This document shows, piece after piece, positions 17,393-53,397 of a DNA stretch of 53,397 bases; within the stretch, counting starts at the first letter, position 1; each line of letters starts with the position of its first letter. Made by a program: the position numbers and the translations under genes. This stretch comes from Acidimicrobiia bacterium (GTDB lineage Bacteria > Actinomycetota > Acidimicrobiia > Acidimicrobiales > JANYDT01): NCBI GenBank assembly GCA_043718695.1, contig JAYSVF010000100.1, positions 1 through 53,397 on the forward strand. Reading direction: 5' to 3'. A model generated the notes under the pieces. The model had not been told where the DNA came from. It saw nothing but the letters and a program-made list of their open reading frames with translations, and did no database searches.

Positions 17393-17516
17393 GAGGCCTT
17401 AGAACTTAGGTCGTGTTGCTGATTGTGCCCAACCCATTGCGGTGACTTTGGGCCTGACCCCAAGCGGTCTGGTGGGCGACTGGCGACGCGGAGGCGAACG
17501 GTGCCAGAGTTGGCGA

Positions 17517-18551
17517 ATGAGCGCAGCGAAGGATCATCGACCCGAAACGTGGCTTCCCCTCACGCAGGAAGAGGTGATTGAGCCGGAACTTGGGATCGTT
17601 GATCCGCACCATCACCTTTGGGACTACAGCGGTAAACCGGGATACCAGCCGAAGTACCTTCTCGATGACCTGCACGCCGACACCGGGAGTGGCCACCGAA
17701 TCGATGCCACGGTGTTCGTCGAGTGCAGCTGGGCCTACCGAACCGATGGTCCCGTTGAACTGCGTGAAGTGGGCGAAACCGAGTTTGTAGCCGCGCAGGC
17801 TGCGCTGTCACTAGAGCGGATCGGCCAGGCGCCGATTGGGGCCATCGTCGGAGCATGCGATCTCCGGCTCGGTTCGAAACTCAACGGGGTTCTCGACGCC
17901 CACGAAAAGGCTGCCGCTGGCCTGTTCCGTGGAATTCGGCACCGCTTAGCCCATGACCCGACCGGCTCTGCGCGCACCAGCGCCCCCAACGAGAACATCG
18001 AAGGTCTTATGGGCACTGATGAGTTTCGCGCCGGTGTCGCTCTGCTCGGAACCCGTGGTCTCACCTTCGACGCTTGGATCTACCACGTTCAAATGCGGGA
18101 ACTCATTGCGCTGGCCAAAGCTGTTCCGGGAACGACGATCATTCTCGACCACATCGGCGGACCCTTGGCCGTTGGTGCCTATGAGGGTCGTTGGGAGGAA
18201 ATCCATTCGACCTGGCGTGGCGAACTTCAAGAACTTTCGAACTGTCCCAATGTCGTCGTCAAGGTTGGAGGAATTGGTATGCCTACGTACGGTAGCGGGT
18301 ACGAGGTTCGTGACCTTCCGCCAACGTCGGATCAAATCGTGACTCATTGGGGTGCGGACATGCGCTTCATCATTGACACCTTTGGTGCGGATCGGTGCAT
18401 GTTTGAATCGAACTTCCCGGTCGACAAAGTGTCGTTCTCGTATCGCATCATGTGGAACGCCTACAAGAAACTTTCAGCTCATTACTCCTCAACCGATCGA
18501 GAGCAACTGTTCTCTGGCACGGCCCGCCGCATCTACCGAGTGACGGCGTAA
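17517..18551 (+). CDS. amidohydrolase-2 family (metal-dependent hydrolase/decarboxylase)
   Basis: IVDPHHHLWD metal motif, TIILDHIGGP and CMFESNFPVD. The start is uncertain (ATG 17517 versus the upstream track start 17442). Confidence 0.8.
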   Translation: MSAAKDHRPETWLPLTQEEVIEPELGIVDPHHHLWDYSGKPGYQPKYLLDDLHADTGSGHRIDATVFVECSWAYRTDGPVELREVGETEFVAAQAALSLERIGQAPIGAIVGACDLRLGSKLNGVLDAHEKAAAGLFRGIRHRLAHDPTGSARTSAPNENIEGLMGTDEFRAGVALLGTRGLTFDAWIYHVQMRELIALAKAVPGTTIILDHIGGPLAVGAYEGRWEEIHSTWRGELQELSNCPNVVVKVGGIGMPTYGSGYEVRDLPPTSDQIVTHWGADMRFIIDTFGADRCMFESNFPVDKVSFSYRIMWNAYKKLSAHYSSTDREQLFSGTARRIYRVTA

Positions 18552-18564
18552 GGTGTGGCGAGTT

Positions 18565-18592
18565 TCCCGAGTTAGAGGCTCCTAACTCGGGA
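18565..18592. terminator. 11-bp perfect hairpin between convergent genes (candidate bidirectional terminator)
   Basis: TCCCGAGTTAG-aggctc-CTAACTCGGGA, read directly. It lies between the stop at 18551 (+) and the stop at 18612 (-). There is no strong U-tract. Confidence 0.45.
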
Positions 18593-18611: not shown

Positions 18612-19730
18612 CTACATCGTGTTGGGGTAGTACTCGCCTGACGGAACGTTGGAAACGTCGGACCAAAAGTCGGAGTCGAATGGCCAGGAATCTTCTTCGC
18701 CTACCAGGGGGCCCTGCACAAACTTGCCGTAGTCGCCACCAGCTCGCTCGCTGCCAACCAGGGACCAAGCTTGGCGTTTGTAGGTCCAGTTATCGGGTTG
18801 CAAACGGTTGGCTTCGTTGAAATGTGCGAGAGCCAAATCACGTTGGCCGTTGCGCCAAAGATGGTTCGCCAACTCAAAATGCGCGGCACCTTCAGACTTG
18901 GAAATCGGACGGGGTTGTGACCGAGCAATGACCTCATCGGGGCTCAACACATACGCGCTTGCGGCACCGTTGGCCACCCAGTCACGAATTGCTTCATGGT
19001 AGGTCAAACGGTCTTGACCGGTTCCAATCGCATTGCGAGGATCGGCGCCTTCTGGGGCCTGCGGCGCGTTTGGGGCCTTGCCCATTTTCGGTAGCGAACC
19101 CAAAATTCCCTTAGGCATTTCTTGGCGAGCACCGGGCCAGCCTGGTTCCGCGGGGCGCACAATCATTCCCTGCTCGTCAATCCAAACAACGTTCGGAATA
19201 TTCACGACGCCAAACAATGCGTCCATCTGGTGGGTGGGATCAAGCAGCGACGGATGCTCGGGATTGGCGGCTTCGATGAAGGCTCTCGAACCTTCGGCGC
19301 CGGTGATGTCGAGGGAAACGGTAACCACTTCAAGGCCTTTGCCGTGAAGCTCATTGCGCAAGGTCTGCCACCCGGGCAGATCAAAGGCACAGCCTCAATA
19401 CGGGGCCCACGAAACGATCACGACCTTTTTGCCTCGTAACGACGAAAGCCGAAATTCCTTGCCATTCAGATCGTTGAGGACTAGCTCCGGTGCGATGGCA
19501 CTTACCAATGCCCGATCGCCAAGGGATTCCGGCCCCAGTGCCCACAGGCCGACTTTCTCGTCATGCACGGTCGCCATGCGTAGTCGCTCAGCGGTGCTGC
19601 TCAGATTGAACCCGTTTGACTGATCAAGCGGCACGCATACATCACCCTTACAGGCACCCTCGGGCTTTATGGCCCAACCGGTCGCGGCACCAAACTGTTC
19701 TGCATCGATATCCAACGATTCAAGAATCAT
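18612..19730 (-). CDS. ResA/TlpA-like thioredoxin-fold protein with in-frame TGA at the active site (candidate selenoprotein, WAPY-U-GC), plus a C-terminal TPR-like tail
   Basis: Track ORFs 19395..19730 and 18612..19361 are in one frame, separated by TGA (19395-19397) and 11 sense codons. Read-through gives ...RGKKVVIVSWAPY[TGA]GCAFDLPGWQTLRNELHGKGLEVVTVSLD...NIPNVVWIDEQG. The downstream piece has only a TTG start and no RBS. Confidence 0.65.
19364..19380 (-). promoter_or_regulatory. candidate bacterial SECIS hairpin
   Basis: On the mRNA, UCUGCC-CGGGU-GGCAGA forms a 6-bp perfect stem with a G-rich 5-nt loop. The stem begins 14 nt after the UGA and the loop about 20 nt after it. Confidence 0.4.
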
Positions 19731-19841: not shown

Positions 19842-20391
19842 ATGAACAACGTGGACATCGACGTGACCGCAAAGTGCTCGGGTAGGCAACAACCCAAAAC
19901 CTTGGCTGAGGAACGCGCCATTGTGAAAGCCGCCACCGGGTTCTCGGCGGATCGTCGGAAGGCTCAACCTCGGTGCAGGACATTCTCGATGAAGCCGGCC
20001 TATCGACGCGAGCGTTCTATCGGCACTTCCGCTCGAAAGACGGGCTGATCGCCTCGATGTATCGAACGGCCAGTCAACGTGTGGCCGAAGAGTTGGCGGT
20101 TGCTGCTGCGTCGGCGCGGGGCCAATCGAGGCCTTTAGCGCGTGGGTTGACGGGCTGTTGGCGGTCGCGTACAACTCAAGGCGGGCGGCTCAGGCCAAGG
20201 TGTTGTCGTCGAGCGAAGCGTTAACTTCCAAAGGTGTCGCGCCAGCACGAATCGAGGGTGAGAACGCCAATATGGCGTTGCTGATCGGGATTTTGGAACA
20301 CGGCAAGCGTTCTGGCGTGTTCCCCCATGTGGAACCGATTGATGATCGGGTTGGAACAACGTGGTGTGGGGCAGCGACGCTTGCGTGCTGA
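19842..20391 (+). pseudogene. TetR-family regulator, frameshifted at least twice and probably 3'-truncated
   Basis: The HTH STSVQDILDEAGLSTRAFYRHFRSKDGLI and the flanking parts lie in three different frames (track ORFs 19842, 19973, 20158). The frame changes fall near 19953 and in the GGGG run at 20118-20121. Confidence 0.65.
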
Positions 20392-20559
20392 TTCTTGAGA
20401 TCGTCGACCTTCTCGGACAATCACGCGTTCCCACTCGTCAAACAGTTCTTCGGACCAAACAAACTCGAACAGTTGATCTTCGGCCAACGTCAAGATCAAA
20501 TCCATCACCGAGAATGGGAAGAGCTCGTTCGAATCAACAAACACCCGGATGAGTGCCAC
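20221..20559 (-). pseudogene. PIN-domain toxin (PIN_3/VapC-like), with only about the first 55 codons recognisable
   Basis: RVFVDSNELFPFSVMDLILTLAEDQLFEFVWSEELFDEWERVIV is a typical PIN N-terminus. Beyond about 20395 the frame runs antisense through the TetR remnant and has no PIN C-terminal acidic motifs. Confidence 0.55.
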
Positions 20560-20567
20560 CGGGCTTC

Positions 20568-20942
20568 TCAGTCTTCGCCAAGAAGCTCCGCAATCTTTTC
20601 ACGCCCGGAACGCATTCGCTCTTGCTTGCGCTTCAGAGTAACTACATCTGCGACGAGGATTCGTCGATGGCTACTCGAGGGAAGCCTTCGACAGGCGAGC
20701 ACGCCATCCTCCAACAATCGATCTACGAATTGGCGAGTTACTCCGAGCATTGCTGCTGCTTCCGCTGGGGTGACCTCGCCCTCATCCTTAAGAACGAAAA
20801 AGGACCCGCCGTCAGCAAGATCGTTGAGTAATGCTACGAGCTGTCCCTCAAGCTCCGAAGCGGGTGTGATCGTTGCGGCAAGGTTTCGAGCGGCCTTGCG
20901 GCTTGCTGCCGAGTCGGGGCGAAGCAGCTGAAGAGTTTTCAC
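20568..20942 (-). CDS. helix-turn-helix (excisionase/MerR-like) antitoxin-type protein
   Basis: VTPAEAAAMLGVTRQFVDRLLEDGVLACRRLPSSSHRRI is an HTH_17-like motif. Its stop lies 8 nt upstream of the PIN start, the classic toxin-antitoxin arrangement. The start is a GTG. Confidence 0.6.
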   Translation of the reverse strand: MKTLQLLRPDSAASRKAARNLAATITPASELEGQLVALLNDLADGGSFFVLKDEGEVTPAEAAAMLGVTRQFVDRLLEDGVLACRRLPSSSHRRILVADVVTLKRKQERMRSGREKIAELLGED

Positions 20943-53165: not shown

Positions 53166-53397
53166 CGGAGTGGCTCGGTGGGGTTCACGGGGTGTCCCTG
53201 TGGGAGTAAGTCCAACAATTTCCCGTTCCAGTAATCGCGGTTCACCGCCATCTTGCCGTCACGACGTTTGCCTACCGACACGCCCCGAATTCCATGGGGC
53301 TGCATGACCCATTCGAAGTGATAGTCGTCGCCAAATTCTGCGCCACCGATGAATTCAAACGTGGCCCCAGGCACGAGCTGAAATGATTTGTTGACGA
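53162..53397 (-). CDS. NTF2/SnoaL-like protein, 3' part (5' end outside the window)
   Basis: The frame is open to the window edge. It ends ...MAVNRDYWNGKLLDLL, a typical NTF2-like C-terminus. Its TGA overlaps the LLM ATG (ATGA). Confidence 0.5.
   Translation of the reverse strand, partial: VNKSFQLVPGATFEFIGGAEFGDDYHFEWVMQPHGIRGVSVGKRRDGKMAVNRDYWNGKLLDLLPQGHPVNPTEPLR

Follow-up and report, generated by a model that had tools for sequence, protein, structure and literature searches.

A conserved in-frame UGA followed by a conserved hairpin in a probable selenoprotein gene of family NF041054 from an Acidimicrobiia bacterium

The contig JAYSVF010000100.1 of an Acidimicrobiia bacterium (assembly GCA_043718695.1), analysed here from position 1 to position 53,397, a stretch hereafter called the window, carries on its minus strand a single reading frame of 373 codons that contains one internal stop, TGA, and ends with TAG (Table 1). 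We conclude that this frame is very probably one intact gene for a genuine selenoprotein of 372 residues, belonging to the family NF041054, with the internal TGA read as selenocysteine (Sec). All positions given below are those of the window; L0xx numbers denote homologous genomic regions and P0xxx numbers denote database proteins. The list of open reading frames (ORFs) and the translation agree with the initial annotation in that two ORFs share the frame and are split only by the TGA: the 5′ ORF (19395..19730) starts with ATG and encodes 111 amino acids (aa) ending in ...VVIVSWAPY, and the 3′ ORF (18612..19361), in frame with it, has a TTG start and encodes 249 aa. Read-through of the TGA gives a 372-aa product in which SWAPY, the recoded residue and GCAFDLPGWQTLRNELHGKGLEVV follow one another, the codons around the site being TGG GCC CCG TAT TGA GGC TGT, i.e. 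W-A-P-Y-U-G-C.

Table 1. Features of the selenoprotein gene, with positions in the window and the evidence on which each assignment is based.
Feature	Position	Strand	Evidence and details
Complete selenoprotein gene, 372 aa	18612..19730	-	ATG at 19730, Sec codon 19395-19397, TAG 18612-18614; NF041054 match; purifying selection on both sides
UGA codon, selenocysteine 112 in W-A-P-Y-U-G-C	19395..19397	-	Codon column of 83 genes; Cys (TGC) homologues; CxxC alignment
SECIS-like hairpin, encoding Asp-Leu-Pro-Gly-Trp-Gln-Thr	19364..19380	-	RNAalifold consensus, pairing, synonymous-site conservation
N-terminal beta-rich domain, ~70 residues, conserved C27 and C32 (EGACKGDVC)	19521..19730	-	Cys columns; P0006 AlphaFold model
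Thioredoxin-fold (ResA/TlpA-like) domain, residues ~76-195	19146..19505	-	Pfam, PDB matches, model superposition
C-terminal helical TPR-like domain, residues ~235-372	18615..19028	-	Sub-cutoff TPR_2; P0006 model helices; many invariant columns

Across the 372 codons we observed no further stop and no frameshift. An identical stretch of 3,076 bases that includes the TGA is present, with 0 mismatches, in two assemblies derived from different Sequence Read Archive (SRA) runs, which rules out an assembly error as the source of the stop. The strain itself is represented in SRR22198337 and SRR23617203. In the window, TGA terminates 11 of the 32 long ORFs; since it serves as an ordinary terminator, a genome-wide reassignment of UGA cannot account for the read-through, and no other TGA-separated ORF pair in the window resembles a recoded gene. 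Selection was estimated on each side of the TGA against two relatives that retain it, L086 and L087, with ~88-95% aa identity to the window gene and synonymous divergence (dS) of 0.97-2.4. The ratio of non-synonymous to synonymous divergence (dN/dS) is 0.020 for the N-terminal half and 0.034 for the C-terminal half when compared with L086, and 0.050 and 0.057, respectively, when compared with L087. With dN/dS of 0.02-0.06 on both sides and synonymous sites near saturation, the two halves have therefore stayed coding, within a single frame, over a long divergence.

For the profile searches, U was entered as C. The read-through protein matches NCBIfam NF041054.1 (‘WAxxUGC_long’, an equivalog described as ‘ResA-like WAxxUGC motif-containing protein’) with 457.2 bits for a cutoff of 300 (E = 4e-137), residues 1-370 aligning to profile positions 1-351 of 354. 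The match is full length, WAPY-U-GC fits the W-A-x-x-U-G-C motif with its U arising from an in-frame stop codon, Sec is encoded by UGA, and no difference of substance from the family is seen. By its sequence, then, the gene belongs to this curated NCBI family and its predicted selenoprotein is already known; a RefSeq family name built on this motif, which the initial annotation had mentioned, does exist in this entry. Pfam matches are AhpC-TSA (50 bits) and Redoxin (40 bits) over residues 78-191, with a weak GSHPx match at residues 84-137 (23.7 bits for a cutoff of 27) and TPR_2 at residues 282-314 under its cutoff (22 bits); the Pfam scan gave no match before residue 78.

The closest solved structures by sequence are 3kcm (a Geobacter thioredoxin-family protein), 1jfu (TlpA), and 4nmu and 1st9 (ResA). 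In the HMMER alignment to the ResA, TlpA and thioredoxin-family structures, U-112 is placed opposite the first Cys of C-x-x-C and Cys-114 aligns to the second with a one-residue gap, such that the site is a contracted U-G-C at the N-terminus of the thioredoxin-fold helix alpha-1. This bears out the original proposal that the TGA occupies the position of the first redox Cys with a Cys two residues later. An AlphaFold model was built for the Cys homologue P0006, which is 61% identical, rather than for the read-through protein itself. The model (mean predicted local distance difference test score, pLDDT, 84.7) comprises three parts: an N-terminal beta-rich domain (residues 1-68), with strands and helices at residues 7-68 (pLDDT 82-95); a thioredoxin fold that superposes on B. 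subtilis ResA with a root mean square deviation of ~1.6 Å over ~115 residues and a target template-modelling (TM) score of 0.78, helix alpha-1 starting directly past the U-G-C turn; and a C-terminal part with helices at 235-328. The C27 and C32 columns are each conserved in at least 90% of the 83 family genes described below. They form a C-x-x-x-x-C pair (EGACKGDVC, 19635-19652) in a domain without Pfam match, and may constitute a second redox or metal site in the protein. No signal peptide or hydrophobic anchor is evident in the N-terminus MILESLDIDAEQFG, and the product of the gene is therefore probably cytoplasmic.

The protein has the thioredoxin fold in common with ResA, TlpA, CcmG (DsbE) and StoA, which are extracytoplasmic thiol-disulfide oxidoreductases, and like them it has a Trp placed four residues ahead of the first redox position. 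Unlike ResA, TlpA and DsbE proper, it scores well below the respective cutoffs (55 versus 170, 40 versus 230 and 20 versus 123 bits); it thus shares their fold and is not a member of these families. It also differs from ResA and TlpA in having U-G-C, one residue shorter and with Sec first, instead of C-x-x-C, in lacking a membrane anchor or signal peptide, and in its additional N-terminal two-Cys and C-terminal TPR-like domains. With glutathione peroxidase (GSHPx) it shares a thioredoxin-like fold that has Sec-Gly at its active-site turn, while ResA and TlpA are clearly closer in sequence and fold. Two bacterial selenoprotein families, ‘Prx-like thiol:disulfide oxidoreductase’ and ‘thiol:disulfide interchange protein’, have been described (Zhang, Romero & Gladyshev, 2006; PMC1794560) and are likewise homologues of thioredoxin-fold thiol oxidoreductases in which Sec replaces a redox Cys. 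The motifs described in that paper are UxxC, CxxU and TxxU, whereas the motif here is UxC.

A scan of one genome per species gave 80 homologous loci which, together with two tandem paralogues and the window gene, make a set of 83 genes. The loci are mainly from Acidimicrobiia and Ilumatobacter, with others from Pseudonocardia, Geodermatophilus, Blastococcus, Dehalococcoidia, Tepidiformaceae and Myxococcota. The Sec column holds TGA in 80 of the 83 genes and TAG in the other three, with the flanking protein sequence conserved, and the taxa with a stop codon in this column include Acidimicrobiia, Pseudonocardia, Geodermatophilaceae, Chloroflexota and Myxococcota. TAG occurs in the Geodermatophilus and Blastococcus entries and in no others. 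In Geodermatophilaceae, a tRNA-Sec with a CUA anticodon and UAG at the Sec sites of selenoproteins are described in a passage of Santesmasses et al (2017; PMC5330540) that cites Mukai et al (2016), and also in PMC10778597. The identity of the stop thus tracks that of the Sec tRNA, which is hard to explain unless this position is Sec. The TAG codons lie at L006:10334-10336, L016:10334-10336 and L017:10259-10261, in Geodermatophilus sp. CPCC 205761 and two Blastococcus, with the hairpin core downstream (see below) unaltered. One truncated database protein of 236 aa, P0114, comes from a Geodermatophilus genome and bears the RefSeq name ‘thioredoxin family protein’, and the UAG-encoded members of the family seem to go unannotated.

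The proteins annotated in the database give a complementary view of the same column. More than 3,000 homologues were found, and the best 120 are, except for five, C-terminal fragments of ~230-258 aa (~60-69% of the query), all cut at one point by the gene callers and labelled ‘hypothetical protein’, ‘TPR repeat protein’ or ‘thioredoxin family protein’. The five full-length matches among these 120 (P0006, P0007, P0036, P0096 and P0097) carry WAPY-C-GC; Cys homologues of this kind consist of one polypeptide, 358-367 aa long, and their Cys is encoded by TGC where the DNA was read (L083-L085 and L091). The homologue column therefore has the composition proposed for a selenoprotein candidate, TGA or TAG with rare Cys forms. 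A metagenome-wide search with the DNA pattern TGG GCN CCN TAY TGY GGN TGY ... TGG CAR returned 0 matches in a collection that is without contigs such as L083, which itself fits the pattern.

Two further observations concern the family genes themselves. Of 82 genes, 71 use TAT for Tyr-111, the codon just 5′ of the UGA (19398-19400), while in three of four other Tyr columns that are conserved TAC prevails (78-79 of 81-83 genes); this suggests a preference for U immediately 5′ of the Sec codon. All three TAG genes have TAC before the Sec codon. In two Ilumatobacteraceae/Acidimicrobiales genomes, two family genes lie in tandem ~1.08 kb apart (L072:6827 and 7917; L079:9259 and 10334), the upstream copy having WASY-U-GC and both copies having the TGA and the same hairpin.

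We then consider the RNA downstream of the UGA, numbering the U of UGA as position 1. In bacteria, a selenocysteine insertion sequence (SECIS) of the E. coli fdhF type is a hairpin within the coding sequence just past the UGA, with G and U in its apical loop, that is recognised by SelB. RNAalifold, run on the 83 distinct sequences, gives a single consensus helix in which positions 18-23 pair with 29-34 around a 5-nt loop (24-28). In the window this corresponds to UCUGCC-CGGGU-GGCAGA, a 6-bp stem beginning 14 nt past the UGA with its apical loop at 19370-19374. Standard pairs occupy 99.8% of the 486 alignment cells of the helix, versus 21-77% in a control where the 3′ partners are shifted by one to three columns. 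The closing pair is C-G in 70 sequences, U-G in 7 and U-A in 3, the window being among the U-A cases. Codon choice within the stem is strongly restricted: Leu-118 is encoded by CTG in all but one of the 83 genes, the exception having TTG, which keeps the pairing (entropy of 0.09 bit versus 1.59-1.91 bit in 14 other conserved Leu columns); Gln-122 is CAG in 83/83 (entropy of 0 versus 0.58-0.85 in four other Gln columns); and the Pro-119 codon has the lowest variability among 15 Pro columns. Within the loop, which begins 20 nt past the UGA, G25 and U28 are invariant, and the variants CGGGU, AGGUU and CGUGU each contain a GU dinucleotide.

The hairpin has the location and the loop expected of a candidate SECIS. 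The distances between UGA and SECIS used for comparison are the ranges of bSECISearch. Like the fdhF element, it lies within the coding sequence just past the UGA and carries G and U in its loop, and it differs in its short stem (6 conserved bp) and in that neither a conserved lower stem nor a bulged U was detected; its binding by SelB is putative. A G conserved within the apical loop is a general criterion for SECIS elements (PMC1794560), and the hairpin, shortly downstream of the UGA, has this G. Two possible extensions of the structure were tried and rejected: a lower stem, which is the outer helix of the minimum free energy (MFE) structure of the window, is not conserved in the family alignment, and a seventh base pair (columns 24-28), which would close a triloop, forms in just 20 of 81 sequences.

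Among the 83 genes, loop positions 24 and 27 (19374 and 19371; alignment A3) are C..G in 62, A..U in 20 and A..G in one. The codons involved are CCC or CCA for Pro and GGG, GTG or GGT for Gly/Val; were the two positions to form a Watson-Crick pair, 2 nt would be left in the loop. This almost perfect covariation could correspond to a SelB-bound conformation of the loop, or merely to lineage-linked codon choice.

The four Cys-form DNAs allow a comparison with genes in which a SECIS is not needed for decoding this position. One of them is without the hairpin (CTT, with a predicted folding energy of 0), two have a CCG codon that is absent from the Sec forms together with a mismatched closing pair, and one, L083, retains the hairpin. 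SECIS relics have been described in Cys forms that arose recently from Sec forms (PMC1794560), with which the L083 hairpin is consistent. The loss or alteration of the hairpin in three of the four Cys forms is suggestive of a role in Sec decoding.

Genes for the Sec machinery adjoin the family gene in related genomes. In a tRNA scan of 55 related loci, the only tRNA genes are three tRNA-Sec(UCA), in L031, L035 and L043. In L035 (11280-15706), selA (388 bits), selB (294 bits), selD (317 bits) and selC come, in this order, immediately after the family gene; in L031 (5473-9896), selC-selB-selD-selA are divergently adjacent to it; and selA, selB and selD also lie beside it in L043 (11208-15571) and in L020 (848-5096), the latter being outside the tRNA-scanned set. 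The SECIS core in these sel-linked loci is identical to that of the window. For the Sec trait of these Acidimicrobiia, the family gene may be a core client, and we infer that the Sec machinery is present in the genome from which the window comes.

Taken with the codon column, the hairpin and the fold, this leads us to a mechanism in which the ribosome would arrive at UGA-112 with the hairpin, 14 nt downstream in the mRNA, acting as a bacterial SECIS. The candidate SECIS would recruit SelB-GTP with Sec-tRNA(Sec), and selenocysteine would be inserted in place of termination. In the resulting protein, Sec-112 would be the attacking nucleophile and Cys-114 would resolve through a selenenylsulfide, the activity being that of a thiol-disulfide oxidoreductase or a thiol peroxidase. 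The peroxidase option is kept open because of the weak GSHPx similarity and the U-G dipeptide. Both the insertion of Sec in this organism and the enzymatic activity are what we infer from these comparisons.

Several results weigh against the selenoprotein interpretation or limit it. The 53-kb window contains no tRNA genes, hence no tRNA-Sec, and tblastn with actinobacterial SelA, SelB and SelD found no match to selA, selB or selD within it, in line with what had been noted from the sequence at the outset. The family appears to be known from curation alone, and no paper in the literature searched uses the motif name. Regarding the RNA, the Rfam scan of the window, in a database where bacterial SECIS are poorly covered, gave no match. 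Covariation is thin, with one compensatory pair seen in three sequences; note that it is necessarily sparse, as the stem lies inside the conserved codons for Asp-Leu-Pro-Gly-Trp-Gln. The RNA-level case thus rests mainly on synonymous-site conservation, in stem codons that also encode conserved residues. The folding energy is unremarkable (z = -0.73; 44 of 200 shuffles fold as well), such that of the stable hairpin initially reported after the TGA, its existence and its conservation as RNA hold while its stability is ordinary, and its significance lies in conservation and not in stability. Lastly, the comparison with the Cys forms involves four sequences only.

A more far-reaching version of the selenoprotein reading can be considered, in which the apparently cytoplasmic three-domain protein carries out an undescribed redox reaction and, separately, SelB recognition in Actinomycetota is distinct. 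Taken jointly, we regard these two proposals as rather unlikely. The three-domain anatomy, with its contracted U-G-C, N-terminal Cys pair and TPR-like tail, differs from that of ResA, and the reaction could for example relay a selenenylsulfide to a specific protein partner that the TPR domain binds. As for recognition, the covariation at 24/27 might reflect a SECIS apex with just two exposed nucleotides and a distinct mode of SelB binding.

What doubt is left about a functional selenoprotein gene mostly concerns a possible loss of the Sec machinery in this strain. The gene would then be a relic, its lineage having recently lost the machinery, with the UGA terminating translation or a near-cognate tRNA inserting Trp or Cys at a low level. 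The Sec trait is indeed patchy and often lost in bacteria (PMC1794560), and our search for the machinery was confined to the 53-kb window. We nevertheless consider a relic quite improbable: compared with the nearest relatives, purifying selection acts on the C-terminal two-thirds no less strongly than on the N-terminal third, relatives in which sel genes adjoin the gene have the same SECIS core, and two separate samples contain the sequence unchanged.

Even less credit can be given to a pseudogene, in which a TGY-to-TGA nonsense mutation would have inactivated a Cys-containing ResA-like gene. This had been raised as a caveat initially, on the ground that the neighbouring TetR and PIN genes are decayed, and we indeed find the adjoining TetR gene broken across frames and the PIN gene degenerate, with no Sec machinery in the window. 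The stop is shared by 83/83 of the closest family genes over several phyla, close relatives keep the TGA at near-saturated dS with the low dN/dS reported above on both sides, and the 372 codons are otherwise intact. Such a pattern excludes a plain nonsense mutation and the pseudogene is refuted at the family level, which leaves it only as a very recent, strain-specific loss of function. Finally, two separate genes, one for a 111-aa protein and the other for an independently initiated 249-aa protein starting from the TTG at 19361, can be dismissed: gene callers annotate this split form almost everywhere, but the split falls inside the active-site turn of one thioredoxin fold, the Cys homologues are single polypeptides, and the TTG (a Leu codon), doubted as a start from the outset, is not conserved, the codon beginning with C in 67 of 83 genes, which excludes independent initiation of the C-terminal piece.

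With the selenoprotein gene as the preferred reading, the locus adds to annotation another selenoprotein gene split by standard gene callers, in a family that is systematically mis-called in public metagenome annotations. It also suggests that an Acidimicrobiia-like organism decodes Sec, and adds comparative detail on a short SECIS embedded in coding sequence. It opens no new question, because the family, its motif and the Sec codon are already curated at NCBI.

The surroundings of the gene are less well preserved on its upstream side. In the region 19842-20559, the TetR-family gene is broken over at least two frames, the helix-turn-helix TetR_N being matched only from profile position 19, in the ORF 19973-20224. 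A PIN-domain ORF on the opposite strand (20221-20559) gives a weak match and overlaps the TetR gene, and next to it lies an intact HTH_17 antitoxin-like ORF (20568-20942). The TetR/PIN region looks like genuine local gene decay, being identical in both assemblies up to window position 20360. Upstream neighbours differ among the closest relatives L086-L088. Downstream, an Amidohydro_2 gene (17442-18551) is convergent with the selenoprotein gene and is kept in these relatives (L086:4845-5879, L087:6061-7095 and L088:3914-4948); the Cys-form locus L084 has an Amidohydro_2 gene nearby too. The promoter and terminator scan found nothing relevant to the selenoprotein gene. In the 60-nt spacer between the two convergent genes, we observed at 18565-18592 a perfect 11-bp inverted repeat, TCCCGAGTTAG / CTAACTCGGGA, with a 6-nt loop, which is a candidate bidirectional terminator hairpin without U tract.

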